A stretch of 64,000 nucleotides of DNA from Psammoneis japonica. Its lineage: Eukaryota. The translations under genes were made by a program, and so were the position numbers. This document shows, in pieces, positions 15,745 to 44,194 of this stretch. The first letter of the stretch is position 1. Each line of letters opens with the position of its first letter. The stretch is taken from positions 372,001 to 436,000 of the forward strand of contig QPGO01000007.1 of assembly GCA_008632985.1 (NCBI GenBank). Direction: 5' to 3'. The notes beneath the pieces are model-generated. The model saw only the letters and a list, made by a program, of their open reading frames with translations, searched no databases and was not told the origin of the DNA.

Positions 15745-15746
<2 letters not shown>

Positions 15747-17480: not shown

Positions 17481-17799
17481 TAAAATGCATGGTGTGCCAC
17501 CCAACTTGTGGCAGCCAGCAGCTGCTGCAAGTGTTGTGCTCTCCCTTTCTCTGGATCTGGCAGACAGTGCAGCAGATGCCAGAGAGCCCCACCCTGGGTG
17601 GCAGCAACATCACAACACAATGAGAGTCTGCCAGCATGTTCAAATGCTTGGGAACACTGAAATGCAAAACACTGTGGGGTGATCAAAACAGAGAACACTC
17701 AAGCCATTTCTGCTTTGTTGCATTCTCCTGCTGCTCACACTGACACTCTGTTGTCATTGAAGCAATCAAAACAAAGAAGATGTTGCCAATGCACAGTGT

Positions 17800-24824: not shown

Positions 24825-24966
24825 GGGGAAAGTTGAGAGGGTAACAAGCAGAAAAAATATTCCAGTACCTAATCACGCTCTCTTTCTCAACTGATGTACT
24901 GTGCCGTGTGTGCGTCTCGATTAAACGTGAATATTTACAATACCCTACGGGAGCAACGAGGATTAA

Positions 24967-26367
24967 CTATGACTTAGGTTTCAAGCTCCTGAAAAACTCT
25001 TGCCATTTGCTCTCTTTCAGAACAGCATCAGCATCGACAGAACAGAGCAATCCAGTTTTCAACCCTTCACTAAGATATTTCCGAACGCCCTCTGCTCCTT
25101 CCGGTGATGCATAAAATTCCGGAACAAGCTTGGATTCCAGCTCCAAGGTGAGATTCAGGAGCTTGTCGGCGTGCTTCTTGCCAATACACTCCAATGGGAA
25201 GTCAGTCAGAGACTTTAATCCTTGTTTCATTGCAAACTCTTCTGTAGCATCCGTCACAAATGGTCTAGAGAGGGACTCATCCACCAATCCCTGCATGTAC
25301 GCTCGAGTAGCAATCATGTCCCAGTGCAGCACATCCTTGTTTTTGGAGGAATTCATTGTCCTGGTTGCCATGTCGAGAATCTCATTGTTTGAGAGTCGTT
25401 TACACATTCGTCCTGCTTCCGGAACCACATTGCAAAAGAAATTAGTAATGTAGTCACCGCTTTCGTGCATGTTGAATACCTCCACCTTGCCCGGGAATTT
25501 CTTTTCCCACATGGTCTTTATCCAATCGGGTTGCTTTGTCGTCTTTGCTGTGAATTTCTCAGTGTATTCCGAGAAGGAAGGAATCAATCGACCACCAGCT
25601 TTACCCGGCCATGCCTGCCGTTTTTCACGATCTTGCTTTCCATGCGGATGAAAGGATTGAACGTACGAACTTGGTATCCATGTAAAATAACGACGGTACG
25701 TAAAGACAATTCGAACTCTCCAACCCTTGTTAATGATTGGATCGAGGTGGTCCCACAAAAATGTTTCCTGATCCTTGTCAAAAAACCGATTCAGAGTCTC
25801 GTCCGAAATAAACACATTATAACCTTGCTCAAAGTGACTATCCGTCAGAGCTTTCAAGTCGTTCCATCGCTTTTCGCAGCCACAATCATCGGCCGACGAG
25901 TCGCAAAAAAGGCACAAACTTGACAACAAGTGCATGTTTGTTTCATAGTATCGTCCATAATGTCCAAGATAGTATAAATTTTCCTGTTCAAGTTGCTTCA
26001 TGTGAGCTCTTGAATACTTTTGGACCGATGAAGTTCCTGTCTTTCTTGGACCAACATGCAAGATTAACAATGGTGGCTTGTTGTTTTGTACAATAGAGGT
26101 TGTTGTTGTCGCATCGATGGCTTTGGAAATCTCTATTTTTGGCGTTTCATTGTCGATCTTGTCATTTCTTCTTAACATTGTTTTGTCACCAGCACTATCA
26201 ACTACGGATTCTTTGGGGAAGTTGTTGCTGTTGTTTACCATCGTCTCCTTGTACAACGTTGTGTTTCCGTACTTGCTCTGCAGAAAACCTCCGTATTGAT
26301 TGATCCACAAGAGCAAGGCGCCCAACCAAATCGACGCAACAATCACTGGCTTCCCTACTGACTTCAT
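24967..26367 (-). CDS. Type II membrane protein, sulfotransferase-like P-loop family
   Basis: N-terminal TM segment, LILHVGPRKTGTSSVQ, ISDE and VFTYRR...SSY motifs. Confidence 0.6.
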   Translation of the reverse strand: MKSVGKPVIVASIWLGALLLWINQYGGFLQSKYGNTTLYKETMVNNSNNFPKESVVDSAGDKTMLRRNDKIDNETPKIEISKAIDATTTTSIVQNNKPPLLILHVGPRKTGTSSVQKYSRAHMKQLEQENLYYLGHYGRYYETNMHLLSSLCLFCDSSADDCGCEKRWNDLKALTDSHFEQGYNVFISDETLNRFFDKDQETFLWDHLDPIINKGWRVRIVFTYRRYFTWIPSSYVQSFHPHGKQDREKRQAWPGKAGGRLIPSFSEYTEKFTAKTTKQPDWIKTMWEKKFPGKVEVFNMHESGDYITNFFCNVVPEAGRMCKRLSNNEILDMATRTMNSSKNKDVLHWDMIATRAYMQGLVDESLSRPFVTDATEEFAMKQGLKSLTDFPLECIGKKHADKLLNLTLELESKLVPEFYASPEGAEGVRKYLSEGLKTGLLCSVDADAVLKESKWQEFFRSLKPKS

Positions 26368-27059
26368 GGTGTCCAATTGATATGCCTCTTGTGTCCGATG
26401 CGTCTTTAGACTGCGACACACTGCATGTTTCGTACTTCTAGAGAGTAGAGTCTGAAGCAAAATGTGGGCGTCTTCGTCTTCCCCTCAAATATTGCCCTCT
26501 TCCGCGATCAACCCTAAGTCTGTTCCCGTTGCACGACAGAATTGGTTCCTCCTCTTTTAGGTGGAACTCTCTAGATCGAAGTCTGAAACCGAAAGATTTT
26601 GGATTGCCGCCCTCGCTACTATCAGAAAATAGAGCCATGACGATTGCCTGCACCAATCATTTTGCTGCATTTTGCGCCGGGCGTTCGAATTAATTAAAAC
26701 ACATAACGGTTATTTCGGTGCGCACTTTTGCGCGACCCACGCGACATGACTAACATGCGTTAGTGCGTGGTGCTGGTTGTTTTGCTTCTGACCGTTCTAT
26801 CTTCTGTGAGGTTTCATGAGGCTGTCTGTGTATGTTGATGTTGTCTAGTTGTGCATGTTGATGTTGTCTAAGGCAAGCTGCGTTGGATTAAGTGAATGTA
26901 GAAATGTGCGAAATTTACGCATTGTTGCAGTTTCTTTGCCAAATGGTTGGCCCTCATTTGTGGCCACACTCAATCCGCGGCGGCTCAAGTGAAAGTCCAT
27001 GTGCATGTATTTTATGCATTGATGCGGTTGTCTTTGCTAAATGGTCATTTGCAATTTGC

Positions 27060-27530
27060 TCAATTCCATTCTTTCTGGCCACACTTCTTCTGAAGGGACT
27101 TTGCTTGCTCCTTCTCCTGCTCCGCCATCTCCTCCTCGGTGAAAAATCTCCCCGACCGCTGTGGAATCGCCGCTGCACATGCTGCCTTTAGCTCCTCCAT
27201 GGTTGAATCATCCTTGGGCGCGACCGTTGTTTCCACATGATGACTGTCCACTGTCGTGTTGTCTTGCACAAGTGCAGAAGTGACATCAAAATTTCCCGAA
27301 GTGAGGTCAAACGCCGCTCTTGCTTCTTCCAAGGTAATCTCCTCTTCGTCTTCCTTGTTCATCAATGACTGAAGAAGTTCCGCACGTGTCTGCACCTTTT
27401 TCTTGTCCTCACCAGTTTTCTTTGGCTCGTCTGCCTTCTTTGTTTGTTGTTGCAAATCCATGTTTTCTCTGTTGCTGCGTTTTCTGTGACGGCTGCGTTC
27501 GCGTTTCTTGGTTTGTTGGTTAAAATCCAT
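27060..27530 (-). CDS. Small Lys/Glu-rich hypothetical ORF inside the element
   Basis: 156-aa ATG-started ORF, charged and Tyr-free; no family recognised. Confidence 0.4.
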   Translation of the reverse strand: MDFNQQTKKRERSRHRKRSNRENMDLQQQTKKADEPKKTGEDKKKVQTRAELLQSLMNKEDEEEITLEEARAAFDLTSGNFDVTSALVQDNTTVDSHHVETTVAPKDDSTMEELKAACAAAIPQRSGRFFTEEEMAEQEKEQAKSLQKKCGQKEWN

Positions 27531-27676
27531 TCGACGTTGTGTGACGTATGTGTAGATTTCTGCGCAATGTGCTGATCTAATCGAAACATTTTATTTTACG
27601 AAATTTCCGCATTTTTACGGTTGGGGTCACCAAACAGCTGTGCAGTGGTTGAGCATCCTAATCTAATGTTTGCATG

Positions 27677-30600
27677 CTACATTGACATTTCTGCGTGCTG
27701 TTGCTGAGAAAAATGCGTGGCGCTTCTCTCCTTCATGAGTCTCATCAAGGCTTCGTAGCCTTCTGGGACCTTGCATTTTCGCAGGTCCTTGCTTGGTGGC
27801 TTTCGCATGAACAGCCCTTCTCTGGTCTTTGCTCTGGAGAGCACAACATGCACCCAATTCTGAGCGCAGCTCCAAGAGTGTGCAAACAACTGCGGGACTC
27901 CACTCCCTTGCAGTTTGTGCCCTGCAGCAGCATTGTTGATGACAAACGGCAGCTGGGTTGCCTTCAGTTGGAAAGTGTGCCTTTGTTTGTCGCCTTCTTC
28001 TAAAGTTGGGCTGGGCTTGGCGATGCAAGCCCTGAAAGCATTTGTTTTTGGCTCAACTAAAAACTTCGCGGGGTCGATGCTTTTGTTGCAGTGTTCCAAT
28101 GCAACGTGGTCTACCTGACTAGCAAGCACAGCAGGAATGCCAATGTTGTTGTCTAAAGTCACCAGTCTTGGTTCCTGTCCTGGTTTGAGAATGACCTTGT
28201 CAACAGTGGCTTGCGTTCCGTTTGCTTGACCGTTTGCTGCATTTTCGTTGAAAGGTGTCATGACTCTGCATCCTCTGTAAATTCGTAAGACTGGATCCAT
28301 TCTTCCTGATTGCATGACAACGTCTCCTTCACCACAGTTGTTCCAGAAGCTGTTGTAAACCGGAAATGGTTGGTAGAGTCTCGTGCCATTCTGTGCCTGC
28401 AAGTCGTCACTGAAAATCAACATTGAGTCAAGGACGTCTCCATCTCTTCTGTGCAGTGTTTTTACTCTTTTTTCGAACAGGCCAGTGTCAATTGCATCTC
28501 TGTCCTTATTTGCGTGCGTGGCACAGCGGAGGTCACTGGGCAGATCATCTTCATTCTGAACTGCTCGTTCGTTGATGCACTCCACATCGTCAACTGTAAT
28601 CTCACCAGTGCGGAATCTCTTGAGCAGTTTTCCCCATGATGGATCGTCTTTAAACCTGTGTACACCACGAAGTTCTATGCAGCAGTTGATCCACTCGTGA
28701 AACTCGGGACATGCATCTTTGTGCAGTGGTTTCACTCCTTTTCCGACTGGTTCTAGTTGCCTGAGGTCACCTGCGAAAACAATGTTCATGCCACCGTACG
28801 GCTTGCTCAATTCGCTCTTCAACACTGTTAAATTCTCATGGAGTTTTTCTAGTTCTCTCTTGCTTGCAAAAGAAATCTCGTCTACCACCAAAAGTCTCGT
28901 GTCTGACCATGCTTCAATTTGCTCTTCGGTCATTTGCTTTCTTCTCATGAGGTGTGCAACTCGGTGGATTGTGTCCCCTTTGAGAACAGTGGCAGCCACT
29001 CCGGTCAGTGCAGTTGTTCTGATTGTGCTTGTTGTGAACGGCTGCTCAACAAGCGAGCAATGCTCTCTTCCGTGTTCCACGACGAGGTCCATTGTGGTTG
29101 ATTTGCCACTTCCACCTGCACCATGTAAAAAACACACAAGTTGCAACGTTCCACGTCTTTGCACTTCCACGAGTTTCTTCAATCGGCGAAGGTTTGTTGC
29201 GAATTCGTGTCTGCCATTTCTCCTGTTAAGTCCATTGCATGACGTCTCGTCTTGAAGAGCGTCTTGACAGCAAGTGAGCACAAAGGTTCCTGCTAGAATT
29301 TCAAAGGCACGCTGCTGTTGCCTGTCCAGTCTTGCTTTCCTAGCCCAGTCTGCGACACTTGCTGCAGATCCGTTTGCTTGACGTACATCGACGTGTTCTT
29401 CCAAACCTGTCATGTCCTCAAACGACCTTCTTGTTCTTTGCGTTCTAGTCAGCATCACTCGAACAATGTCGTCTCTTGACAGTGGTCTGCTGTGGATGTG
29501 TTGTTGCACTCCTTCATTCTGGTCTTCCTCGTCGGTGTCATCGCCGCCCTCTAGATTCTCAAAAAGTTGTCGTTCATCAACCTGGCTTTCCTCGTTTGGT
29601 GGGTCAGTGTGCATGTCTGCCAAGCATTTGCAACCACCCATGTGTGAACCTTTCTGTCTTGCACGTTTACCACTCAAATGCGCAGGAACAACTGCTTGGT
29701 CGCTCAACCCAATGTCATCGTCTTCTGGCTGCTCTGCCATTTCTTCCAAGAGTGCATCCAGCAGTTGACCCTGAACGGCGCCTGAAAGACCTTCTTCCTC
29801 GTCACTTTCGTGACAGTCAAACGCAACGTCAGCAGGTCTAAATTGCTCTGTCTTTCTTTGCAGATCGTCAGATGTGCTTTTGAGACGAAGGCAGTTGGAC
29901 TCAGCATCCTGTGGGTTCTGCAAGAAGTTCAAGTTTTCCTCTGCAATGACACCGGCTGCTGCGGAGAGTTGGAATTCACGCAGGCATGCATGGGTTGTTG
30001 GTTTGAGTTCTGTCATTGTTCTGCAAGGTGCAAACAAGGCCAACGCCAACTTGCAGTGCAATTCTTTGTCTGGTGTTGTTGGTTGCTGCGGATTTGTGAG
30101 GCAACCACCAAACTTGGCTGCATCAGGAAAATCACACTGAAGCACTTTTGACAATCGCGGTTGCTGTCGCTGTCTGACACCTTGAAGAAACTTGTTCTTC
30201 GTTGAATTGCAAGACGGGTGCCTGTGCACTCTGTCATCGAACATCATCATGCCGTGTTCGTTTTTCCTTGTGTTGCAAAGAACTTCGCACTCACTGAAAA
30301 ACGCAAATGGGCTGAGATTCTCCAGTGCTGTTGGACGACATGGGTGGTGCAAGGCCTGGCATTGGAAGAACGGTGTGTCGCCAAAACAGGCTACAGTCGC
30401 AGACACTTCATCTCTTTCTAGTGTGCTGACAATGTCTTTCAAGGGGCACCATGCGGTCAAATGAGATTCGATGAAACGGCTTCCGTTCCTTGTCATGTAA
30501 GACGCAAGTGGTGGTCCAATGACGTTCGTCTTGTTGTGTGAGCAAGCACCCCACATGAGACGTCTGATTGCTTCCAATGCATCAGATGCGTGTTTCCGTA

Positions 30601-33328
30601 ATTCCGTCGCCACCCTGTTCGTAGTTTGAAGCACTTCGTCGTACGATGCAGCATCATCTTTCTGGGTGTCTTTTAGGATGTGCTCAATCGTGCATTGAGC
30701 AGACGGTCCAGGCATCAATGAAGCAATGTTTGTGTTGCATGTCAGTTTTGATCTGCTCATTGCAGGGCACGACACGTTTTGAAAAGCATCGCACTTTCTC
30801 CTCTTCGGAACAACTTCCTTCACACACCGATGCGCAAAAGTCCCATCCCAGCTGAACCACTTTATCTGAGTGTCATCTGCGTTCCTTGCTAAATCATTTG
30901 GACACGAAGCAGCTGGTTGCCTGTGACGGCAGTCACCCAGTTTGAGCTCCTCTCGTTTCCTTTTCCTTGACAGTGCGTCCAGTTCCTCGTGTGGTTTTTT
31001 TTTGCGCATTTTATGTAACTCCACGCATTTGGGAAAACACAACTTCATAACGTGCATGTGATGGTTGTAAGCTGCGTCCAGCACATGTGCCTCCATTGTC
31101 CCTTGCGGACCACTTCGCTGGTGTTGTGCACACATTGCTTTCAGTCGCTTTGCATGGTCATCTGGATGGCGAGTCAGGCCAGGCACACGGTGCCGTGACT
31201 GTAAAAAGCTTTCTACAAACTCGACGTTTGTCCAGTGCTTGGTGCAGTGACGACAACAAGCAAACATTCCGTTCTTCGACTGCTGGCCGTCTTCATGCCT
31301 CAGGTTTCTTAGCTGTTGGTCGTCTGCTGCTTTTGGAGAGGTGCGACACATTTTTGGCACTGCACAGTCATGATCGAATGCTTCACGCAACGCGTTGGTG
31401 CTGAAGTCCTTGCTGCAGATTAATTCTGTGCTGCAGATCTTCTGAACTGTGTTGGTGAGGCACTCAGCACCTTCGCGTCGGATCTGTCTCATTGGCGAAT
31501 GCAGTTTCTCTCTTGCATTGTTGATTGATGCGAACCAGATCTGCATGTGTCCGTGTGCTGTCAGATGTCCCTGCTCCTCAACTGCGGCTAAAAATGCGGC
31601 TGGCCTGCCAATGCAGAAGTTAAAGTTTTCTCTTGGTTGGCTGGCACTCAGATCCCAACCCACTGCCTCTTCTGTTGCAATGTCAAACAAGCACTCGAAT
31701 GCAAAGGCTGTTAGACTGGGAAACTTTAGACGCAGTTCATTACGTTGCTTGGCCCTGCTGGCAAGAATTTCGTCCGTCAGTTGTGTCACGTCTTCGTTTG
31801 GGTCCAGGATGACACCCGAGTGCAGTTGCACAAGAAATGAATTTGCATCGTCCGGACTGACGGTTAAGAAAATGCCACCCTGACCAAAATGATGCTGATG
31901 AGTTTCGGCGTTTCTCCTCATTTTCTTTGCTGCTTCATTGCTGTGTGGCAGAGACGCAGATGCAACGTCGAGTGCGCACAAAAAGTGGTGCCCGAGTCCA
32001 TGATCTATTCTCTCGCCCAAGTTGCGATCACAAACAGCTCCATCCACATCGTCCACTGTCAGTTCGTTTGCAAACTGTGCAGCCTGATTCTTGTCCCTGA
32101 CTTTCCACCCTGCGCTCTGTGGCATCCTTTGCTTCATTGTCAAGTTGCAGCATGTTAACACGAAGAGCTGCTCGTGGAAGTGAGGCTGGGAAATCCGTGC
32201 CAAGTGGTCGGCACAGTGTGCAACGTTGGTGCCATCTGTGAGACTTCCGTCTTTCTTCATTCTCGTCTCATTGATTCCTCCTCTGCCAAAAGGAAACTGC
32301 AGCAGACACGCGTTGATGAAGTTGTTGCCTTTGAAATCACTCGCAGATTCTTTAGACAACTGTGCTTGCACCTCTAAATCAAATCCGTTGGCAGCAGCTT
32401 CGTGTGCAAGATCTTTGAAGCAGTCCAGGTTGCGCTGACCACCGGTCACAGGAGACATGGTTCCATCAGGAAAGCAAATGTGAAATGACTCTGAGGTCTC
32501 AACATTTGCATTTTCTCCTTCTTCTTTGCCGGTGCTGTCGACAAGTGCGGGATTCCGCAGATTACGCCCAACTTCGTCTAGATTTGTCTGTTGGTGCACC
32601 CACTCTTGGTTGTGGTGCAACAGCCATTCCATCGCCCTCAGCATGTGGTGCGTCCTAATTCTGTTCTTTGAACGTGCAAGTTGTCTTTGCTCCGGAGTCA
32701 TCTTTCCAGTCATCAGTGCAATCACATTCTGATGTAAATTCAGCACGTCGAAGTGCACAACAGTTCTTACGATGCTTTGCATCTTGACTTTGTAGTGTGT
32801 CAGACTTCCCTGAAGCTTCTTCTGTTTGCCGCCAAGGCAACTGAAGCAGCATCCGCATGTTTTCACTGGTGTGAGCATTGCCAATTCTACTTCGGTTAGA
32901 GACAACAGTTCGTGCGGCGGGGTGCCGAAACAGCAGTTGTTCGCTGTCGCGTGCATTGGCACAACGGCTCTTCCCAGGCTTCTTCAGCATTCGCTGCAGC
33001 AAGTGAATCCGTCGACGCGTTGTCTGTCTTCCTGCACTGCGCATTGGGCACGGGGAGAAAGCAGCAGGTCTTTGATCCAATCAGCATCTTCATGCTCTAC
33101 AGTGCAGCAGGACTTGAGACGATCAGATGCACTGTTCCAGTCTGAAGGGGTGAGTGAGTTTCTTGCTGATTCCAATGTTTCGAGCGGCAAGCAGCAAACT
33201 TCTCTAGGTTTCAGCAGAACGTCACAGACCAAACATGCGTGTGGTCTAAATTCTCCGTCTCCACGCAGACAAAGCATCTCAAACTTTCTGTTGATTGCAT
33301 TGCAAACACGGGAGTTGGCCTTGTCCAT
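27677..33328 (-). pseudogene. Helitron Rep (HUH endonuclease)-PIF1 helicase, hypermutated
   Basis: Rep motifs IFLTVSP, VEEQGHLTAHGH and CTIEH (=YxxKY). PIF1 motifs HGAGGSGKST, TGVAA...GDTIH, VVDEIS, FAGDLRQLEPV, HRFKDD, ANGT, GHKLQG and HVVLSR. ORF 32984-33328 is in the same frame, separated by one TGA. Confidence 0.9.
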
Positions 33329-33417
33329 TTTAATTTAAGCTGTTGGCTCGACAAATTTCAAGAAGTTGCTCAGTAAAAACAGTTGTTTTTTCGGTGCGAT
33401 CACCGTGAAGCTGCGAT

Positions 33418-34045
33418 CGGTGCCATCCAATCACCACAGCGATGTGTGTTTTCTCGCCACCTGCAGCACTGCGACTGGTGTCATCCAGTCACTGCAGTGG
33501 TTCTGTCCAGTTGATCAACGAACCGCGTCGGTGCCACCCGTTCACCGCAGCGCTGTGTCGTCTTCTCACAACCTGTGCAATCAGGTCGCTGTGAGCACTG
33601 CGACTGGTGCTGTCCAGTCACCGCAGCCGAGTTAATCAGTTGCTTGACGAACTGCGTCGGTGCCACCCGATCACCGCAGTGTTGAGTTGTGTTCTCACAA
33701 CCTGTGCAATCAGGTCTCTGTGAGAGCTGCGACTGGTGTCGTCCAGTCACCGCAGCTGAGCTTGTGCGTCATCTCACAACCTACGTTGCGAGGTGCAGCG
33801 CTGTGTTGTTCACTCACAACCTGTGCAATCAGGTCGCTGTGAGAGCTGCGACTGGTGTCGTCCAGTCACCGCAGCCAAGTGAATTAGTTGCTTGACGAAC
33901 TGCATCGGTGCCATCCGATCACCACAGCGTTGTGTCGTGTTCTCACAACCTGTGCGACCAGGTCTCTGTGAGAGCTGCGACTGGTGTCGTCCAGTCACCG
34001 CAGCTGAGCTTGTGCATCATCTCACAACCTGCGTCACCAGGTCAC
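33418..34045. repeat. Imperfect tandem repeats, ~110-130 bp unit, five core copies
   Basis: Core GCGACTGGTGTCGTCCAGTCACCGCAG recurs at ~33471, 33600, 33729, 33848 and 33977. Confidence 0.85.
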
Positions 34046-34895
34046 TGTGAGAACTGAGAACTACGATCGGTGTGGCCCAATCACCGCAGTTGGATGCTTT
34101 TCGTTTCCCTTTGCGCAAAGGTTCTGTCACAAAAAAGTGAGACGAAAGTGTGCCTCTTTCACCTCGACGGAAGAGTGACGTGTGCGTTCCTCCCACGTCC
34201 TTCTTCGTACCAGACGCACGACATCCTGCTTGGTTTCGTCGACATTGAACATCCCATGGGATGAGATTTGGATCTTGTTCAAGTTGTTTTGACCATCTGC
34301 TCTGAACATTCCATGGGGTGAGATTCGGATCTTGTTCAAGTTGTTTTGGCAATCTTGGTGGTGGGCGCAGCTTTGCACAAATTCCGTAGAATCACACTTT
34401 GACGAGTGGCAGGGCAGTTGAGTCAGTCGTGTGGCAACAACAATGCGATTGACGTCATTCGTGTTTCCAAAGTGCGCGCGAATCCTCCAAATGGGTGATG
34501 GGCCCACCTCAGCTAACTGCCGGTACAGTGTGCAGTGACAGCGATGGCGTCGACCGTTTGGCGACTAGATTTCGTGCGCGATGGCCGCGCGGCAGTGACG
34601 GCTGAAATGCACACGAAGCACGGACGGAATTGCGCGTGATTTTACGCATTTTCAGCAAACTTGGTGCGACTTTGCGTGCTCCGATCCTTGCATCTGTTTT
34701 GTTCAAATTGAATCCATGCACCACTTGCAAGTGCTGACACCTGGAAGGTTGCCTTGTTGCAGTTCGACGTGTTTGAACCTGGTTGCTGACGTTGCCAGTT
34801 CTCCTTGGCATGATGCACGCAGCTCTGCTGGGTCTTTCTTGGCACTTCTGAATGATCGCACTTTTTGTTCCCACAATTTCTCTCCGACTGATTTG

Positions 34896-35768
34896 ATGGC
34901 ACGCAAAAGAAACACAATGACCTCCCCGGCTGCGAAGGCCAAAGTCGCCGAAACCAAACAGAAGAAGGCAAAGACGAAGTTTTCTGATGCTCTGTTGAAG
35001 AAACTAAGTCCGCCCCGCAAGACCAATGGCTTGACCGACGACGACCTTAAACCGGAAGACCACCTTGCCAAGCACGGGTTCAAGCTTTCCAAATCGGCCG
35101 GTTCTGACGATGGCAGCCATTCCGACAAGGACGCCCTCCTGCGCTGCGCCACCATCACTGTCGGCCGCAAGAAAGGCGTCGTTTTTCGTCTCCAAGCCAA
35201 GAATCCCCTTTCAACCAATGTTTGGTCGGAGAAGGTTCTGTTTGATGACCTTCGCAGCAGGACTCCATGGGTGGTTCAAGTCGGATTCCACCCTTACGCT
35301 GGCAGGTGGGTTCACGAGGGCGAGTTGCAGACGAACGCCAAGAACTGCGCCGTGCATCTCTTCTTCATCTTCCTCGAAGAAGTCCCAACCGATGCTAAAG
35401 TGCGCGGCCTCGGGAAGCACATTGCGAAGCAGCTGAACGATGACCCTGAGAACAACACCGAGGTCTTCGTTGAAGACGACTTCTTCTGGATGAAGGATGC
35501 TGTTTGGTCCGAAGTGATCGGCAACGAGGCGGCGCTTGCCGAGCTTCAGAAGGAAGGTGGTCAGTTTCACATCGGTTGGCACGCCCAAAACAAGAACTCA
35601 CTTCACAGTTGCTTCTACGAGGGGTCGTTGCCTGTGGAACTCTGTCGTCTCATTGGAGCTCCGGCAGAAGAAGCTGGAGAAGAGGCCGACGATGATGTCG
35701 AGCTCAACTGCGAAGTTGACCTGAACGTCGATGACGACTTGGTGCTTCAGGACAGCGACGAAGACTGA
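34896..35768 (+). CDS. Hypothetical protein, basic N-terminus and acidic C-terminus, element-borne
   Basis: GC3-rich coding-like ORF, MARKRNT...KQKKAK (NLS-like) to ...DSDED; only two Tyr. Confidence 0.65.
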   Translation: MARKRNTMTSPAAKAKVAETKQKKAKTKFSDALLKKLSPPRKTNGLTDDDLKPEDHLAKHGFKLSKSAGSDDGSHSDKDALLRCATITVGRKKGVVFRLQAKNPLSTNVWSEKVLFDDLRSRTPWVVQVGFHPYAGRWVHEGELQTNAKNCAVHLFFIFLEEVPTDAKVRGLGKHIAKQLNDDPENNTEVFVEDDFFWMKDAVWSEVIGNEAALAELQKEGGQFHIGWHAQNKNSLHSCFYEGSLPVELCRLIGAPAEEAGEEADDDVELNCEVDLNVDDDLVLQDSDED

Positions 35769-35855
35769 GTTGTTTTTTTTTTTGCCGGTGCAGTGTAAAT
35801 TTGTAAATGTTTGGCAAACCAAGTGTCGATTGCAACTCAGCTTTCCTCTGTCTCT

Positions 35856-36791
35856 TCAAGTGTGCACCATCTCCGACGATAACTTTACATTACCGCGAAG
35901 CAATGGCGAATTGAGCAGAGTAACTAGCGTGTGACGTCCAGTGCAGTGACAGCAAAAAAACAGTTCAGTTGAGTTCTTAAGTGAAATTGGCTGTTTCGCG
36001 ACGGGCAAATGCTTCCGTTCCAAGTGTGTCGGAGTGGGACGTCGCATGTGCTGGCTGGTTGACTGAGAAGTCTCCTCTTTCTTGGTGCACTTGTGGAAGA
36101 CGAGATGTTTCATGTCTCCGCTGTGCCACAAAAAGTCACCATCATGGCAATCCACCATGAAGGACTCGCACATCCACTCTCCCGCGTACGATGCGAACAG
36201 CGGATCTAGCACCACCACCATGGTCCCAGCACGACACAACTTCGAAAGCATTGCCTCTGCCTTCTGCTGTGTGTTCTTGTCGTCGACCATGCGGGAGTTG
36301 CAGTTGTTGAAGAACACCTTGAGTCCTTTCTTTTTCCACAAAGGAGCCAGCCTCTCGTCCAAGAATGACTTGTTGATCAACTCTAACCCACCGTTCGAGC
36401 AAAGGCCAGCACGATGAGCCCAACGTACAGCCTCTTGGTGACGATCGTGGTCGGCCTCGATGCTCACCACGGTGCAACGGCGACGAAGTAACTTGAGCCC
36501 GATGCTGGGTCCGGCAACTCCCCCGCCCATGTCGACAGATGTGTCGCAGGTGTGATTCACACCAAGAAGGCGTTCGTTCAAAAACACTTCGCTGCTCAAA
36601 GCGAAGCCAACTTCGCCGCCGTGTGAAGATCCGCTTCCGTCTCCGGAGACACGCCTGCTCTGGAACGCGGAGTCCGGAGCCGTTTGAAGACAAAACTCCC
36701 TGACACTTCTGCAACGATGGTTCATTGCATCCAACCTTGTGGCAACATCAACCTTGCTTGCAGCGGGTTCGACCAGACGTCGCGTTTCCAA
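35856..36791 (-). CDS. DOT1-like class I SAM-dependent (histone H3K79-type) methyltransferase, hypermutated
   Basis: Ordered motifs SHGGE (cf. YGE), VDMGGGV (cf. VDLGSGVG), SIE, KSFL (cf. GDFL), VFFNNCN (cf. IFVNNF) and AGTMVVVLDPL (cf. GxRIVSxKP). Confidence 0.6.
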   Translation of the reverse strand: METRRLVEPAASKVDVATRLDAMNHRCRSVREFCLQTAPDSAFQSRRVSGDGSGSSHGGEVGFALSSEVFLNERLLGVNHTCDTSVDMGGGVAGPSIGLKLLRRRCTVVSIEADHDRHQEAVRWAHRAGLCSNGGLELINKSFLDERLAPLWKKKGLKVFFNNCNSRMVDDKNTQQKAEAMLSKLCRAGTMVVVLDPLFASYAGEWMCESFMVDCHDGDFLWHSGDMKHLVFHKCTKKEETSQSTSQHMRRPTPTHLERKHLPVAKQPISLKNSTELFFCCHCTGRHTLVTLLNSPLLRGNVKLSSEMVHT

Positions 36792-37136
36792 ACCAAACTG
36801 TGACGTGCGCAGAATGCGTAAAATTGCCGTCGCGCCCTCTGCGCGCGCGAAATTTTCAAACGCGGCGTGCCACCTCTACCTGCGCATGGAGCGACGTACA
36901 AAGTCATTTTAAACAGACATGTGGACGCGTTGAAATAATAAGACGCCTTTGGGCGGTAAAATTTGTTTTGAATCTCGGCCTGCTTCTCATCGTTGCCATG
37001 CTTGTGTGTCCGTGTAATTCAAACGCACGAGCTGGCACGGCACGTGATGCACTTCTACGCGAGAACTCGCACTGAGATTGCCGTGGGATGATCCTCCCTC
37101 CGCGGAGACAAAAACAACGCGACAACACTTCCGTCA

Positions 37137-38606
37137 TTGCACCTTGAAACACATTTCAAATTGAGACACACCATGTCGCAACTACCTCGTGCCTCGCTGC
37201 GTCGTCCTGCCAACGACAAGCACTTGTCGCGATCAAGTTACAGCCAGTCTCGACAGTGTGGGGGTTTGGGACGTGCAGCTTGCAGCCCGACAACAAGCAA
37301 ATGCTTCTCGCGATTGGGTTTCGACCCCACTCCCCTGGAGTCCGCCGGTCCCTGTCAACAGAGTTTTGCTTTGGGTGCTCTTGAGGCAACGGAAAGCAGA
37401 CACATCTCTCGATTGGGTTTTGACCCCACTCCCCTGGAGTCCGCCGGTCCCTGTCGACAGAGTTCTGCTTTGGGCACTGTTGAGACGACAGTGACAGTGT
37501 CAAGCAGCGGAACATTTGCCGGTGAGTTCGCACACACGTTCTCTGCGAACACTGCATCGTCAATGCGCACCAGGATGTGCGAGAACGTGTTGAGGGCTCA
37601 ACCGCCACTTCGTAAGGCCCACCGCAGCCGCAGGCGAATCCGCAGCCGCGCCAGTGGGAAAACATCCAAGATTGCTTGCCTCGTTCCACTCGCACCGTGC
37701 GCCACTAAGAGTCTCTCCGTACACTGCACAGCTGACCGCACTCTGGTTTACAATGGGGACTGCACTCAGCCTGCACCACCTTGTCTTGCTGACATTGACT
37801 TTGCCGAATTGGCTCCTCTGGTCATCTGTGACCCTGTGCTCGATCTGAAGCCTTTCTTTGGCTTGGACGGTTGCCGCTGCGACAACACCTGCACCCTGCT
37901 GCCGCGTTCTGCTGTGGTGTTCAGCTCCCCCAACCCAGCAGAACTCGTTGCTCAGTGCCGAGCGCTCGAAGCACTAGAATGCTGCACCGCCCAGTCCACC
38001 GTGCGCGGCAAACAACGCGTTGCCTTCATGGAGACGGACAGGAGCAAGCATTCCACGATTGGCCTGGCTGCCACGAGGGACGCTCGAATTTCTTGCAAGC
38101 AGCCTGGCACAGCCAACCAACACACTCACCACCTCACCAGACTTCTTTCACGCATGGAGCACCTTGTCAATGAGTGCGTGGACTGTGCCATCCTTGAGGG
38201 TGTCGCTCGTGTCAAAAAGTTTCACAACTGGAAATCCCTGGTGCGGTCAGATGGCATTTTCTCCTCTCTGGCGGCTGGGTGCAATGTCTTCCTCAACGCC
38301 CATCGGGACCAGGACTTCTTCCTGTCAGCAGTCACCGTGGTGGGAGTCCCTCCGTCCGGCAGCTACACCATGAATGACGGGATTGTGGCGTGCTTCTGCT
38401 TCCCCACCGAAGGCATCTCCATTGCACTCTGGCTTGGTGATGTCATCATTTTTAACCCCACCAAGTGCTGCTGCATCTCCAGCAGGACAAACTCAAACGA
38501 CGAGTTCTTCTGCGTGTCTCTCTACCTGAAGAGTGCTGCAGTGGGCAAGAACAACAATTCAATCCCCCTTTCTCTAGAGGAAGAGACCATTCTCAGGCAA
38601 CTGTGA
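37137..38606 (+). CDS. 2OG-Fe(II) dioxygenase, TET/JBP-like, hypermutated
   Basis: C-terminal double-stranded beta-helix-type motifs: FLNAHRDQD (HxD), FCFPTEGISIALWLGDVIIFNP and CVSLYLK. The expected distal His position reads KCCCIS. A 99-bp internal duplication lies at ~37307-37500. Confidence 0.6.
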   Translation: MHLETHFKLRHTMSQLPRASLRRPANDKHLSRSSYSQSRQCGGLGRAACSPTTSKCFSRLGFDPTPLESAGPCQQSFALGALEATESRHISRLGFDPTPLESAGPCRQSSALGTVETTVTVSSSGTFAGEFAHTFSANTASSMRTRMCENVLRAQPPLRKAHRSRRRIRSRASGKTSKIACLVPLAPCATKSLSVHCTADRTLVYNGDCTQPAPPCLADIDFAELAPLVICDPVLDLKPFFGLDGCRCDNTCTLLPRSAVVFSSPNPAELVAQCRALEALECCTAQSTVRGKQRVAFMETDRSKHSTIGLAATRDARISCKQPGTANQHTHHLTRLLSRMEHLVNECVDCAILEGVARVKKFHNWKSLVRSDGIFSSLAAGCNVFLNAHRDQDFFLSAVTVVGVPPSGSYTMNDGIVACFCFPTEGISIALWLGDVIIFNPTKCCCISSRTNSNDEFFCVSLYLKSAAVGKNNNSIPLSLEEETILRQL

Positions 38607-38831
38607 CAGCACAAAATAACTTGCTAAATTTTTTGCGCAAATTTACTGACTTTCTGTGCTCAGGCGACTGTGCAGGTGCCTGCCAATTTACCAGATTTGC
38701 GCAAATTTACCGACTTTCTGTTCTTCCTCGTTCCCATTTTTCGAACCACAACTGGGGCTACGCCTTTCCAACTAATGCCACAGTTTCACTGAAAAACACC
38801 AACACACTGTGCTGCTAATTTACAGAGCACA

Positions 38832-39452
38832 CTACACGGGAAACGTTTTGCCAGACGTGGAGCTTCTCCCCCCCGACTTGGGGAGTAGACGCGATTTCTT
38901 CTTCCGATTCATGGCACCCAACGTCGCCTTCCTCTTCTTCTTCTTCTTCTCTGATTCATCCAAGTTGCATCTGCAGAGAAATTCCTCCCCGGGCATGATT
39001 CGCTTCATGACTGCCAAGCACCCGTCGTTGTAGAACTCGCAGTTGTTGTCCACGTGTTGGCTTGCCTTGATCTTCTTCTTGTCCTTGAACGACTTGGTGG
39101 CATCGTTCATGCAGTGCATTCCGAGGTAGAGTGGATGGGAATTCTTGTTCCCTGGACCGCTAAAATCAAGCGGTTTTGGCTCCACTGTGACATGGCAGCC
39201 CTCGCTGTCACGGATGGTGGAGCAGCACACGCTGTGGTCTTCTCCAAACTTGCTGTCATGGTCGTACCACGAGCAGCTCCTCGTCGTACCGGGCACCCTG
39301 GGGCCCACATAGATTCCAACCGCACTGCCTTTCTGGAACTGGCGCAAGGCAAAAAAACCAACGCCTGCACCCCTCCGTTGCGATGCGCGTAGCTCGCCCA
39401 CCTCCACCTCCTTGGGGCCTGCGGAGCGAACGGACTTTTCGAGGCAAAACAA
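38832..39452 (-). CDS. SET-domain protein (lysine methyltransferase-like), hypermutated
   Basis: GAGVGFFALRQFQKGSAVGIYVG, GMHCMND, NNCEF and KRIMPGEEFLCRCN (cf. IxxGEELxxxY), followed by a Lys-rich tail. Confidence 0.7.
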   Translation of the reverse strand: MFCLEKSVRSAGPKEVEVGELRASQRRGAGVGFFALRQFQKGSAVGIYVGPRVPGTTRSCSWYDHDSKFGEDHSVCCSTIRDSEGCHVTVEPKPLDFSGPGNKNSHPLYLGMHCMNDATKSFKDKKKIKASQHVDNNCEFYNDGCLAVMKRIMPGEEFLCRCNLDESEKKKKKRKATLGAMNRKKKSRLLPKSGGRSSTSGKTFPV

Positions 39453-39634
39453 CGCAGGTTAAGTGACACGGCGCCTCATCCAAATGTGCACACTTCTGCA
39501 CTTGCTCTCTTCATGAGACAGACCAGTGCGAGCGACCACCCCGCTTCGAAAGCCTCGACGGCGGTCTTGAACACTTTGTTGCTCTTCGGCATCGAGTCTG
39601 GGATGCCCCTCTCGCCGACTTCCGTGCGGTGCCT

Positions 39635-40318
39635 CTACACCCACTTGCAGTGTTCGCCGTGAGCATTCGCGACGGCTTCAGGGTCGCTCCTGATGCACCC
39701 CAGTTCTCCCAGCACGGGGAACCAGAGGTCGGGATCATTCGGCGCATCCTTCATCAGGCACATGGACTCCTGGAATTTATCGGATTTTTCGTGCTGCAAC
39801 ACCCAGTCCCACAAGTCGAATGACGGATCGTTGGGGTCCGGAAATTGCTTTCCTTCTTCTTCCTCTTCCGCCGTTGCTTTCGCAACCACTTTGGCCGCGG
39901 GCTTGGCTGCCTCCTCGCTTTTGCCGCTGCAAAAAGGCAGGACCTCCAGTTTCACAAAGGTGGCCTGATCACCCACCAACTCGATCTTGCAACCGGCCTT
40001 GAGGAGCTGCTCGGCGGTGCAACCCAGCTGCTGTGCTTCATTCCAACCACAAATTTGAAAGGTTGGCTCCGGCGGCACGGCTTTCTCACTCTTTTCAGTT
40101 TGGGACTGCGCCGGCTTCTCCGACATCCTTGCGCGTTCGGACTCGACGGACACACCCTCGGCACTTCCCTCGGCGCCAAGTGCAGTCATGGCAGCTGCCG
40201 CCGCGCCTTCGGTGCCCGTGAGTTCTGCCATGACTTCCGGAGCTGCTACATCCTCTGCTTTGCCAGACGCAACGATGTTGTCCTCCGCCATTCTAGCACC
40301 GTGATGACAGAGCTGCAC
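39635..40318 (-). CDS. Ala/Glu-rich hypothetical ORF, possibly the broken N-terminal part of the SET gene
   Basis: Same strand and directly upstream of the SET ORF; coding-like composition; no Tyr. Confidence 0.45.
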   Translation of the reverse strand: MQLCHHGARMAEDNIVASGKAEDVAAPEVMAELTGTEGAAAAAMTALGAEGSAEGVSVESERARMSEKPAQSQTEKSEKAVPPEPTFQICGWNEAQQLGCTAEQLLKAGCKIELVGDQATFVKLEVLPFCSGKSEEAAKPAAKVVAKATAEEEEEGKQFPDPNDPSFDLWDWVLQHEKSDKFQESMCLMKDAPNDPDLWFPVLGELGCIRSDPEAVANAHGEHCKWV

Positions 40319-41229
40319 TCACTGCTGTGTGGTGTGCTGCTTTATTCCAGCCGTTGGCGATCCACATCCTTCTGCGCACGCATTAATGAACGTATGACAC
40401 TTCGCACCAAATTCCACGTAGCGCGTCTGCACCTGTCTACGTCCGTCTTCACTACTGTACGCACTACGGCACTGCAGCGCACCCTTTCAAACCTTCATCA
40501 ATGTTTATTTTTTCCTTCCTTTTCCTTTTCTCTTCTTCTTCTATCTGGCTGGGAGGAACTGCTGGATAGCCGGCCTTATTTAGTCGTACAGTAGAAGTAG
40601 CTTCATCGACACAGAGACGAGAAAAGGGACCATGCCTGCCAATTTACTATGCCTGATGCATGCTTGAACAACCTTGCTCGCGTCGTGCTATAGAGACTAC
40701 TTGGACGGAACCTTTTTGCTCCCTCTAGAGAGCCTACAATGGTGCTAGTAGCTGATGTCTCCACTACAGTACAGTACTCTCTCGTAGCTTGAGTAGATAG
40801 CCTCGCCTACCGGTAGAGAGACCTAGACTCTAGATAGTAGAGCTAGGATCGAGGGCTACTCAAAAGGGAGTAGACGGAGACCATTGCTCACACTATGAAT
40901 GTAATTTGGTGCGATTGCTCTTTCCCAGAAAACTGAAAACACAGACAGATAGTGCGGTTGTGATTAGTCTAGTACCTCGTTTGCAATTCAAGCAAGTTGG
41001 TAAAAGCGCGGACGCTGGGAACGCTGGAAACTGAGGCAATGCTACAATTATTAAACAATTAGAACATTGTCTCTAGCTCCAGGTGAACCCCGCAAAACAA
41101 TTCGCAAATCGGATCTCTTCGGCAAATCCCAGTCTGCTCCGCAACATAAAAGCGCCTGAAATCAACAAACCAAGCAAAGCTTGAAACCTCCACAATATCG
41201 GTTCTAAAAAGTAGCACTCCCGTCATTTC

Positions 41230-43503
41230 TTAAGCGGTTCCGTGCATTTCGGCCGACGCTGCAAGCAAGTTGCGCAACCCACGCGATCCTGCAGTTGCGC
41301 TACGATCAACACTGGCTTCACCAACCTTCTTTTCTTCCGCGTAGCTAAGCGGAAGAGAAGGCTTCTTCCCCTTGCTTCCCTTTTTCTTTCCAGCCTCTTT
41401 AGCAAGACTGCGCTGCTTCTTCATCTCGTCCTTTTGCGTGGCATACTTTTCTCGTTGACGTTCGCGACAGCGCACACACTTGGTGGCTAAACCCTTGTTG
41501 CCAAACGCAACCCACGGACGAAAATTCTTGCAGCCCTTGCACCATTTGATTTCCAACGCGCTCTCACAAATAACCCATACCCGAACGTCACAAGCTGTGC
41601 ATAACCCCTTATTCTGTCTTGGTATAATGTGAATAGTCCCCTCGTCGACTTGATCGAAATCCTTGTTGACTCTGCTCTTGGCCGAGGCCCTCGGTCGACC
41701 CATTAAGGCACTTGCAGACGACAAACGTTCCTTCCCGCACATGACACAATGTTTCTTGCCATCCTGTGAAAACCCAGCCCCGTTGGGATTGGATGAATTC
41801 TTGGCCATGTAGTCGGGGAAATTCACCAATTGACAAAAATCGGGAAGCTTAATTTCATTTCTCTTTTCCTCCTCACTGCAGTTCACGACAATTGCAAAGT
41901 CAGAGCACACAAGTTAGAGAATATAACCCTAGGCTGTATTTCATGTTCAAACAATTTCTAGCACTCACCCCCAATATTTTGAAGGAATTGGACCTTTCAA
42001 CGGAATGCATCGATCCGCGCTTGGTGCCAGTCCGGTTTCCAATGTCGCCCTCTGCCATTGTGCAACCGATTTGATTTTCCTCTCGTCCGATTCATCCGTA
42101 GATGCATCCCTTCCCTTTCCGCCGGCCGTGTCTTTTGAATCGGACAAGGGCGTAGACATGGCTTTGTTGGGACCACCTCTTTCTGGGGTCAAGGCTGATG
42201 AGTAAGGTGCTTCATTCTTTGGATGAGGATATGAGTAAGGAAGCGGAGGACCCATTGGGTAGGGCGGTGGTGGGACTCCTGCATGTGGTGGCGGAGGAGG
42301 ATGCATGTAACCATTGGGACCAGGAGGCATAGAGTACATGGGGTATGCATGATGAGGGTGGTGCCAGCCGTGCATTGGAGCGCCCTCATATGGAGGAGGC
42401 GGGTACGGATACCTCGGATCATGTGGATAGAATGGCGGAGGCATTGGTGCTCGGGACAAGCCAGGCGGTGGACACAGAGAGGCGTCCTGCGCCTTTTCTT
42501 CAGTGGACTCGTCGTCCTCTCCCTTGGAGTTTTGAGAAGCCTCCAATGAAGAAGAAGGAGAGATTACTCTCTGCTTCTTCGTTTGAGTCTTTTTCTCATC
42601 AGAGGACGGCTCTTTCTCTGTAGAAATGCCAACTTCTTCCCCATTTACTTCTTCGAGTGAGCTAATTGCAGGCCTCTTCGCAGTGTTTCCCATCTTTGCG
42701 CCGCTTTCCTCCTCCATCTGCATGCGGCTCTTAATAGGAGAGAACCCGTTCTTATTCTTCTTAGACTTGTCTCCCTTTCGAGACGGGCTATCCATGTTTC
42801 GCATTGGGGAGTATCCATTGTACTCTGGGTAGTATGGATAGGGAGAATACCCCGGGAACGGAGGACTTCCATGGTAGCCCACGTGATATGGAGAGCCGAA
42901 AGGCGGCGATCGCACCGGAAGATCATAAGGCCCCGGAGCTGAATTCTTGCCCCTCTTCCCATCCGGCGTCATTACACCCGGCTTTGACTCACAACTTTCA
43001 GAAAGAGGTGACGACTTGTCTTTACTCTTCTCAGTCCCCTTATTCTGGTTCCTCTGCGCGCCATCGAGTCGAATCGGAGACGGAAATAATCTCCTTCCGC
43101 TATCAGCCTTATCAGCACCCATCCCTGTAGGTCCCCCGGGATGCATGATTGGCCGCTCCCCATACATGGGAGGATAAGGAGGGTGGACGTGAAAACTCAT
43201 ACCGCGCCCAAAGGGCGAAGGAGTCACCGCGTTGTGAGGTCCTTCAGCCACCACACCAGCGACACTATTGTCCCCCATGGGTCGCTGCTGCAACGACGGT
43301 GCAGCAGGGAGCTTACTCCCGGCATTATTATTTGCAGAAGAATGGTCGCTTACAGTTGATGCCAATGTCAACAAAGACATGGCCCCATGGTTGCTTTTTG
43401 AGATTTGCGTCCCATTCGTCGCACCTCCACCTACCACTGATGATTCAGTGCTCGCACCTTTGTCCGTCTTTGCTGATGCAGACGTTGCGTCTAAATGAGG
43501 CAT
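41230..43503 (-). CDS. Pro-rich protein with C-terminal Cys-rich (SBP-like) zinc-binding domain, putative transcription factor, two exons
   Basis: Long disordered Pro/Tyr-rich exon, intron at ~41880-41969, then CVMCG, CTACD, WCKGCKNF, KCVRCRERQR and a basic tail. Confidence 0.65.
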
Positions 43504-44194
43504 GTCAGTTGTAAATCAGTTGGTACAAGTACGCGAGGAGAGAGAAATGAAGGTCCAACGCTTTTCGTCTTCAAATATAGAAGTATAGGGCTAGTGCGGC
43601 AACAAAAACAATGATGATGCGAAGCCTCACCCATGTCCAAACACCAACTCGTCCACGACAACAGCAAAAAAGCGTTTTTGTGACGATGCAAAAATTCAAA
43701 GATGATGTGAATGATAATATTAGAAGGTGTATACCATTATTTCGGCGTTGAACGCTTCAACGCGTAATACACGAATAACTATATCTACATTTTTTCGGAC
43801 GTTGAGCTTACATGTTAATAAAAAATTATGTATTATATATGAATTTTACATTAAAAGCAGAAAAGGCGTTACTTGAATTTTGGCGAGGAAAGCACCGGCA
43901 GAAAAATGGCTTTATATATGATTCATATATGTGCTTGAATAATTGTTAAGAAAGTATTCAATCAAATCGTATCCTTTAGTATCGAAAAATTGGCGGGAAA
44001 TCGGCAACGGGAACGGGGAAATTCCTTTGTCCTCATGAATGAATTTTATCATACCCCGTTGCTCGTGAATCGAACGACTACCATGATCAAAAAGCACGAA
44101 CAGAAACGGGAACGAGCGAGCGAAAAGCGTCAACGTTAACACAAGTCAAAACAGCGAAACGAATTTGCCTTCTGCATAGGGGCATACTGCATCA

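Follow-up and report, generated by a model that had tools for sequence, protein, structure and literature searches.

A TpA-hypermutated Helitron copy in Psammoneis japonica with a TET/JBP-fold dioxygenase gene and putative methyltransferase genes

Introduction

Helitrons carrying a TET gene have been described in fungi, with Helitron1 reported from Puccinia graminis and the Pezizales and Helitron2 from Agaricus bisporus, and an anti-silencing function has been proposed for the TET-bearing DNA transposons of fungi (Kojima 2025, PMC12730594). SET genes on the HarbingerS and MuDR transposons of Phytophthora are cited in the same paper (PMC12730594). In Bigelowiella natans, integrated viral DNA shows almost exclusively A/T-to-G/C changes, restricted to TpA; the TpA-poor genes include some with DDE and reverse-transcriptase domains, and adenine deamination was proposed by the authors (10.64898/2026.01.13.699255). 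The present analysis concerns a 64,000-nucleotide stretch of the Psammoneis japonica genome (assembly GCA_008632985.1, contig QPGO01000007.1, positions 372,001 to 436,000 of the forward strand), hereafter the window, in which a block of about 14 kb appears to be an inactivated copy of a Helitron family that bears a TET/JBP-fold dioxygenase gene, a probable DOT1-like methyltransferase gene and a possible SET/PR-type gene, and that has been stripped of TpA. All coordinates below are positions in the window.

The block resembles the TET-bearing Helitrons of fungi in that its TET/JBP gene stands as a separate gene beside the Helitron Rep and helicase gene (RepHel), and in being multi-copy. Unlike those elements, it has a non-fungal host and a TpA-editing signature, it adds two putative methyltransferase genes and three unassigned open reading frames (ORFs), and its dioxygenase belongs to a divergent family that is barely seen by the Pfam profile Tet_JBP (2 of 81 members). 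The paper on the fungal elements (PMC12730594) covers fungi only, and its main text mentions no diatom, stramenopile, alga or DOT1. Like the Phytophthora HarbingerS and MuDR elements (PMC12730594), the block would be a transposon with a gene of the histone-lysine-methyltransferase type; it differs in belonging to another superfamily, and its SET match lies below family thresholds.

With the Bigelowiella inserts the block shares loss of TpA and gain of CpA and TpG, confined to a foreign or repeated block beside normal host genes (10.64898/2026.01.13.699255). The inserts there are single-copy giant-virus and virophage DNA, unlike the high-copy repeat described here; the preprint text has no mention of a Helitron, helicase, dioxygenase or CpG (10.64898/2026.01.13.699255). 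Two other blocks in the window have lost CpG as well. Fungal repeat-induced point mutation (RIP) also consists of dinucleotide-targeted transitions in repeated DNA that inactivate transposon genes. RIP turns CpA into TpA and thereby makes TA and stop codons, whereas TpA is lost in the block; because the direction is opposite, the frames of the block stay open.

A TET/JBP Helitron, a SET-bearing transposon and TpA hypermutation are thus each already known. The earlier note on this DNA had regarded the combination of DOT1-like, TET/JBP-like and SET genes on a Helitron as undescribed. That stands for the three together; it does not extend to TET Helitrons or SET transposons taken singly (PMC12730594). 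In the literature and main texts consulted, no report was found of a TET-type Helitron outside fungi, of a DOT1-like gene on a transposon, of all three genes together or of a TpA-hypermutated Helitron.

A Repeated Block with a Helitron Gene

The explanation that we hold to be somewhat better than evenly probable is that the block is a copy of an autonomous Helitron family of about 14 kb, with accessory genes carried in the mobile unit and most likely devoted to counter-silencing. Its extent is marked independently by composition and by depth. The observed/expected ratio (o/e) of TpA is 0.04-0.35 in nearly all 400-500-nt windows from about 27000 to 40400, continuously, and the right edge is sharp, rising at 40400 from 0.30 to 1.05 (the value for 40401-40800). 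Surrounding host genes have ratios of 0.4-0.8 and the flanks overall 0.4-1.0, with about 0.55 nearby against about 0.2 in the block. Over 27001-40000, where TpA o/e is about 0.2, CpA is raised to 1.25-1.74 and TpG to 1.27-1.54, compared with about 1.0-1.3 for CpA and TpG in the flanks.

Contigs of one public DNA run were placed on 24000-43900 at 80% likeness or more, giving a summed contig depth, which is not equal to copy number, that lies between 2368 and 5123 in all bins over 26656-40599 and at 52-80 in the flanks. A transitional bin at 25992-26655 has a depth of 1577, and a unique contig begins at 40552; the edges of the high-depth repeat lie within 26379-26655 on the left and within about 40500-40581 on the right. 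The compositional and depth marks delimit the same block. The compositional block proposed in the earlier note at 26800-40420 corresponds to a genuine repeat, which is slightly wider than those limits (about 26.4-26.65 to 40.55-40.58 kb), and six further ORFs accompany Rep/PIF1 in mixed orientations, with those that the note had named lying where it placed them. A tblastn search found no paralogues of the block proteins elsewhere in the window.

The longest frame, of 1768 codons, encodes a Helitron RepHel protein, in keeping with the Rep/PIF1 call made previously: Pfam detects Helitron_like_N at residues 269-480 (31.5 bits, cutoff 28.9), PIF1 (59 bits) and DUF6570 on this one frame, and PIF1 helicase structures are matched with an E value of 6e-12. 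The Walker A motif GAGGSGKST is intact. A T-A-H-G-H-M-Q-I-W stretch is read here as the HUH motif of Helitron Reps. At the position read by eye as that of the YxxxY pair known from Helraiser, the protein has C-T-I-E-H, so that both tyrosines of the pair would be replaced (C...H). Loss of the pair would mark this copy as inactive and leaves the place of the family among the Helitrons untouched.

Copies of the family were compared through 4045 contig pieces placed at 80-100% identity (1210 at 99% or more, 1307 at 95-99%, 1211 at 90-95% and 317 below 90%). Only 111 pieces fit partly, and the share that runs into unlike sequence is zero. Depth ranges from 3579 to 4950 over RepHel and from 3297 to 4193 over 33960-38607; the SET-like ORF is at 2368-2413, and the last bin stands at 3329. 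Contigs bridge the junction of RepHel with the adjoining repeats at 33342 (depth 2872) and the junction of the SET-like and acidic ORFs at 39460 (depth 2612). Transitions dominate among the copies in the contigs of this run. The family is present at something like tens of copies, with its parts about equally represented, and the data favour placing the accessory ORFs in the same repeated unit as RepHel in this genome. With contigs as short as these, a single unit of about 14.1 kb is favoured and falls short of proof. The linkage of cargo and RepHel put forward in the earlier note is supported within this genome, by near-uniform depth and continuous contigs.

Coding Signal and Constraint

All seven block ORFs have a coding-like codon periodicity; in the six beside RepHel, a purine stands at codon position 1 (R1) in a fraction of 0.56-0.67 of codons (p from 2e-4 to 1e-19). 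The signal is strongest in unk389 (p 1e-19); acid227 (R1 0.67, p 4e-10), the SET-like ORF (p 1e-7) and basic176 (R1 0.67, p 2e-4) also show it, and seven overlapping antisense ORFs of 165-257 codons have none (R1 at most 0.53).

Small length differences among the copies avoid these segments: all 11 listed places fall outside the coding-like parts of the ORFs. They comprise three clusters of indels (33342-33346, 39460 and 40381-40387) together with joints at eight places, each 40-118 nt long (33345-33410, 34366-34443, 36917-37001, 37139-37258, 38609-38686, 38746-38818, 40419-40460 and 40503-40550). With coding-like segments making up about 69% of the unit, the random chance of 11 in 11 is about 0.31^11, or about 2.5e-6. 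The ORFs are cut by only three large deletions. This suggests that the accessory genes have been under constraint and mattered to the element. The previous argument that three chromatin enzymes are unlikely to be a random capture gains from this pattern on the matter of constraint only.

The Dioxygenase Gene

By its structural model the dioxygenase adopts the TET/JBP fold, within which it forms a divergent branch. An AlphaFold2 model of the domain built from 81 sequences has a predicted local distance difference test score (pLDDT) of 92.1 and a predicted template modelling score (pTM) of 0.88, and a Foldseek search with it ranked CcTet, CMD1, NgTET1 and TET2 first, with E values from 4e-8; the first 16 entries of the fold ranking are all TET/JBP enzymes, followed by AlkB at 11.5. 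A word-index search found one relative, and HMMER with a two-sequence profile found 983 at E of 1e-3 or below and 174 at E of 1e-30 or below. Close relatives are multi-copy, P0001 belonging to a cluster of 10 members and P0003 to one of 14. The Pfam profile Tet_JBP (PF12851) does not match the ORF in the window and reaches E of 0.01 or below in 2 of 81 relatives (best 0.003); 16-18% of the members of neighbouring clusters in a protein-language-model atlas carry it.

The iron-binding HxD...H triad is present in the family, with H189 in 81 of 81 sequences, D191 in 78 and the distal histidine, H245, in 80. The sole exception at H245 is the window copy, in which it is a cysteine (codon TGC at 38469-38471), so that the triad is incomplete here. 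Compared with CcTet of Coprinopsis cinerea, human TET2, Naegleria NgTET1 and Chlamydomonas CMD1, the enzyme is 11-13% identical and has no Cys-rich or CXXC module, and the window copy shows the distal His-to-Cys change. A conserved arginine, R250 (70 of 81), lies 5 residues after the distal histidine in this family; the conserved arginine of TET2 and JBP1 lies about 15 residues after it.

The first 215 codons of the frame show no periodicity (p 0.38). They contain a 99-nt tandem repeat at 37306-37484 (1.8 copies, 91% matches), and copies of the family differ by indels near it, at the joint 37139-37258 listed above.

Putative Methyltransferase Genes

The neighbouring gene on the other strand is predicted to encode a class I S-adenosylmethionine (SAM)-dependent methyltransferase that is probably DOT1-like. 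Motif I, VDMGGGVAG (36510-36536), and VSIEAD, both features of the class I SAM fold, are kept in three of three relatives, as is FFNN(C/Y)N (FFNNCN at 36288-36317), which may correspond to the VNNF motif of the DOT1 family. In the protein-language-model atlas, DOT1 clusters supply 17 of the 30 neighbours (score 0.95). Among the relatives, P0002 is 53% identical and L002, from a microbial-mat metagenome, 34% identical; L002:472-1269 aligns with positions 38-179 of 205 in Pfam DOT1 (PF08123) at E 3.3e-4 and 20.7 bits (cutoff 23), a profile that matches neither the window ORF nor P0002. A PDB search with the three-sequence profile returned only generic class I methyltransferases, aligned over the part that holds motif I (E 0.006-0.2), a search with the single ORF gave noise only, and an AlphaFold2 model from two sequences was unusable (pLDDT 32.9).

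A metagenome scan with the DOT1-like alignment returned L001, L002 and L003, which are one gene found three times; the contigs that carry it measure 1.3-4.3 kb, too little to bear on a link with RepHel. The L001 protein (L001:1-1707) has at least 569 aa and contains a second, weak methyltransferase-like region, MTS, at residues 353-398 (E 0.025); L001 looks like an ordinary host gene, not transposon cargo.

For the ORF labelled SET in the earlier note, the chances that it encodes a SET/PR-type methyltransferase are put at about even. Pfam SET (PF00856) aligns over positions 1-102 of 105 with 13.6 bits (cutoff 22.4, E 0.096), and the PR domains of PRDM16 and MECOM in the PDB are matched weakly (E about 0.7-1), with both halves in order. 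Two SET-like motifs, RRGAGVGFFA...GIYVG and GEEFLCRCN, occur in order. They are candidates for the SET motifs, a GxG strand and E-E-L-x-Y-x-Y with the catalytic tyrosine; the two cysteines of the latter motif are TGC codons, and tyrosine (TAC) would fit both. Directly upstream on the same strand is the acidic ORF acid227, which contains no tyrosine at all and has no significant match in Pfam or PHROGs. It ends 176 nt upstream of the SET-like ORF (39459-39634), and in one contig a further G stands at 39460. In other copies the two ORFs could form a single gene, connected by an intron or by a frameshift.

Of the three enzyme labels given beforehand, that of a 2OG-Fe(II) (2-oxoglutarate and iron-dependent) dioxygenase of the TET/JBP type was borne out by the fold (AlphaFold2, Foldseek) and not by Pfam. 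The DOT1 label is well founded as to a SAM methyltransferase and moderately so, by indirect support, as to DOT1 itself (17 of 30 atlas neighbours, 20.7 bits for L002), with no Pfam match in the window. The SET label stays below the family thresholds in both Pfam and the PR-domain comparisons.

TpA Loss and the Death of This Copy

Tyrosine makes up 0-1.9% of the residues in the seven block ORFs (0.5% in RepHel), compared with 3.8-4.5% in two flanking host genes, and cysteine 1.7-5.5% (3.5-5.5% in six of the seven; 3.8% in RepHel), compared with 0.6-1.8% in the flanking genes. In the alignment of the DOT1-like ORF with P0002, five of nine tyrosine columns are cysteine, and one tyrosine is kept against nine in P0002. 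Among 81 members, the dioxygenase domain of the window is at once the poorest in tyrosine (1.0%, against a family minimum of 1.6 and a median of 3.2) and the richest in cysteine (6.6%, against a family maximum of 5.2). Conserved tyrosines are replaced in the Rep YxxxY pair, in the PIF1 motif YVALSR and in the SET-like motif. Conversion of TAY codons to TGY or CAY is the expected effect of TpA changing to TpG or CpA. The change from the distal histidine to cysteine needs two transitions, so the damage is not confined to TpA.

Loss of TpA removes TAA and TAG and cannot create stops; frames therefore remain open, and spurious antisense ORFs arise. Open frames that are kept by the type of mutation are no evidence of activity. 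From its lost catalytic residues, the window copy is judged to be dead, a point on which the earlier note is silent.

The block keeps a CpG o/e of about 0.8, compared with 0.08-0.15 in two other TpA-poor blocks. Two arguments built on CpG sites were set aside. CpG retention agrees with a counter-silencing role without proving it; as a sign of a working TET enzyme it was downgraded, as CpG decay is present and a younger age would explain the contrast too. Sites that read CA in the window and TG in other copies had been considered as proof of independent TpA mutation, and this was dropped, as CpG decay on either strand gives the same result.

The locations of the features are collected in Table 1.

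Table 1. Positions of the repeated unit, its ORFs and selected motifs in the window, with the basis of each assignment.
Feature	Position	Strand	Open frame	Basis and remarks
Whole repeated unit, ~14.1 kb	~26450..40580	- (RepHel orientation)		depth; edges approximate
basic176, 156 aa from ATG	27060..27530	-	27060-27590	ORF list; basic N-terminus, acidic remainder; no Pfam or PHROGs match
RepHel gene (DUF6570, Helitron Rep (HUH), PIF1-like helicase)	27677..32956	-	27677-32983	Pfam, PIF1 structures; frame open, judged catalytically dead
PIF1 C-terminal motif	27830..27853	-		conserved Tyr of YVALSR is His (CAT); phmmer alignment to PIF1 7otj
Rep two-tyrosine motif position	30659..30694	-		reads C-T-I-E-H; codons TGC and CAC
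Presumed Rep HUH-type motif	31535..31561	-		T-A-H-G-H-M-Q-I-W; located by script
Tandem repeats, 129/248-nt period	33469..34034	.		repeat search; between RepHel and accessory genes
unk389, ~290 aa from Met100	34896..35768	+	34599-35768	no Pfam or PHROGs match; earlier ATG at 34716; basic N-terminus, globular middle, acidic tail
Probable DOT1-like class I SAM-dependent methyltransferase gene	35856..36725	-	35856-36875	atlas neighbours, relatives, motifs
Upstream part of dioxygenase frame, probably non-coding or low-complexity leader	37092..37736	+	37092-38606	no codon periodicity
TET/JBP-fold 2OG-Fe(II) dioxygenase domain (predicted)	37737..38606	+	37092-38606	fold; HxD present (H189, D191)
Possible SET/PR-domain ORF	38832..39458	-		weak Pfam SET and PR alignments; no ATG before domain
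acid227, acidic ORF	39635..40291	-	39635-40318	directly upstream of SET-like ORF, same strand

Competing Explanations

On the favoured explanation, the family would consist of RepHel and six intron-less accessory genes, namely the dioxygenase, the DOT1-like gene, the probable SET/PR-type gene and three unassigned genes. Following the reading given for the TET-bearing DNA transposons of fungi, the enzymes of active members would have countered host silencing, the dioxygenase through oxidation of 5-methylcytosine deposited on the element and the lysine methyltransferases through marks hostile to heterochromatin. What the data show is the identity of the element, its repeat unit, the TET/JBP fold, the mutation signature and the loss of catalytic residues; a service of the accessory genes to the element, their substrates and the counter-silencing role are inferred. 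Copies such as the one in the window would then have been destroyed by host TpA editing that is independent of cytosine methylation: a host process changing TpA to CpA or TpG would have removed about two thirds of the TA dinucleotides and turned nearly all tyrosine codons, catalytic ones included, into cysteine or histidine codons.

Several observations weigh against this account. The Helitron termini (5'-TC, and 3'-CTRR with a hairpin) were not identified on reading both end regions; the candidates are A|TC (40567/40566) and, at 26441-26438, a CTAG that is followed by A. Helitron 5' ends typically lie in a position such as that of the repeat-bearing 1.1 kb upstream of RepHel. How the genes are arranged in other copies is deduced from depth and short contigs. 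The SET-like ORF reaches only some 55% of the RepHel depth, and deletion joints run from 34507 to 36896, with loss of unk389 and the DOT1-like gene, from 31945 to 32925 and from 27152 to 27505; some copies are therefore incomplete. As to the enzymes, Pfam has no match for the DOT1-like and TET ORFs of the window and only a sub-threshold one for SET, PDB sequence searches with the dioxygenase ORF and with the 81-sequence profile returned nothing, including no TET, and no DOT1 chain is among the PDB profile matches of the DOT1-like gene. L001-L003 adjoin a LIM/Costars gene, with no RepHel, TET or SET gene on their 1.3-4.3 kb. The indel tables run to five further entries beyond those listed. Finally, CpG decay has touched the element too, as 13 of the 23 variant sites listed in the block show a CpG/TpG difference.

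The enzymes could instead be passive cargo of one Helitron, either accidental captures, like most genes taken up by Helitrons, or a single captured host cluster, which is considered unlikely. Helitrons are known to capture host genes (PMC4289320), Kojima calls the transfer of TET among transposon lineages "frequent but passive" (PMC12730594), and the DOT1-like relatives found elsewhere resemble ordinary host genes. Captured genes would fit poorly with accessory ORFs that are complete, intron-less and periodic, whereas the host genes of the window look split (the GATase profile falls partly in one ORF); nor would they account readily for small indels that avoid ORFs at 11 of 11 listed places, or for close TET relatives that are themselves multi-copy. 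Slightly less probable still is that two repeats lie side by side or nested, with an ordinary Helitron at about 26.45-34.1 kb and a cargo element without a recognised transposase at about 34.1-40.58 kb. RepHel usually starts about 1-1.5 kb from the 5' end of a Helitron, and the tandem repeats at 33469-34034 could mark such a boundary. Depth differs between the halves (about 4240 and about 3650, with about 2390 over the SET-like ORF), and TET/JBP genes ride many transposon superfamilies (PMC12730594). Across the putative boundary, however, depth stays within about 15% and contigs span 33342; no loose end lies near 33.3-34.1 kb among the 6 listed out of 94, Pfam finds no transposase in 34.1-40.58 kb, and the depletion of TpA is continuous.

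A viral origin, in which the block would be a fragment of integrated DNA from a giant virus, a virophage or something akin, with RepHel as one of its genes, is regarded as very improbable. Several Nucleocytoviricota clusters stand among the atlas neighbours of the DOT1-like ORF and a Uroviricota cluster among those of the TET ORF, giant viruses carry DOT1 and SMYD homologues (bioRxiv 10.1101/2021.11.30.470311), and it was on viral inserts that TpA hypermutation was first reported. Against this stand the high-copy depth, the canonical Helitron layout of DUF6570, Helitron_like_N and PIF1, and a block in which Pfam and PHROGs detect no capsid, polymerase or packaging gene. PHROGs gave nothing significant for the seven proteins scanned (five block ORFs with the DOT1-like and TET cores, and P0002), and a search of 2.9 million viral contigs with the TET ORF, the DOT1-like alignment, the SET ORF, RepHel and P0003 found no relative.

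A different origin for the hypermutation itself, rated only marginally above the viral one, is that the family's own TET/JBP enzymes hydroxylate thymine at TpA in DNA that is foreign or silenced. A carried or domesticated enzyme would yield 5-hydroxymethyluracil (5hmU) or 5-formyluracil (5fU) that mispairs with G, turning TpA into CpA or TpG. Precedents for thymine oxidation are JBP and the dinoflagellate 5hmU enzyme, and base J in trypanosome telomere repeats sits at T before A. As TpA is palindromic, the sequence cannot separate oxidation of T from deamination of A.

Other Features of the Window

The window is a gene-rich eukaryotic region whose host genes include GMP synthase, emp24, MORN, U-box, MFS and UCH genes and a TIR/Roc protein, among others; ORF listing and Pfam place the seven-ORF block between two host genes, and no tRNA genes were found within the 64 kb. 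At 25762-26378, in a flanking host gene with single-copy depth (33-109), contigs of the DNA run differ from the window at 17 or more sites, which points to an allele or strain difference between run and assembly. The TIR/Roc gene at 9563-12894 has a 949-codon frame with leucine-rich repeats (84-nt units at 9758-9925), a Roc/Ras-like GTPase and a TIR domain, by its predicted domains an immune-receptor-like architecture. A Fringe-like glycosyltransferase gene is repeated in tandem at 55488-59482, in two to three copies whose units are 89-93% identical and about 1.6 kb apart.

Two further blocks, 1-9000 and 14001-19500, have a TpA o/e of about 0.06, a CpG o/e of about 0.08-0.15 and CpA/TpG of 1.65-2.0. 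Pfam found no match for their 11 ORFs of at least 180 codons. They resemble old repeats in which TpA and CpG have both decayed; the Helitron block has lost chiefly TpA. The first of the two contains 125-nt inverted repeats at 3650-4264 (91% complementary, 355 nt apart), together with shorter ones, possibly the termini of a small element bounded by inverted repeats. In or just before the second, direct repeat pairs link 13836-15499 with 16203-17412 (79-89% identical, spacing 1.9-2.4 kb), which suggests a tandemly duplicated degenerate element.

Implications

Transposons with their own epigenetic enzymes display an arms race against host silencing. If the favoured explanation is true, a non-fungal family that pairs a TET/JBP enzyme with one or two putative lysine methyltransferases widens the known picture, and it would supply natural, compact enzymes for testing. 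For annotation, the block serves as a warning: in TpA-edited genomes, a long open frame does not count as evidence for an intact gene. TpA-targeted defence is known from one 2026 preprint, on viral inserts (10.64898/2026.01.13.699255). Its action on a high-copy transposon would add a second layer to the conflict, one that destroys tyrosine-dependent sites while leaving the frames open.

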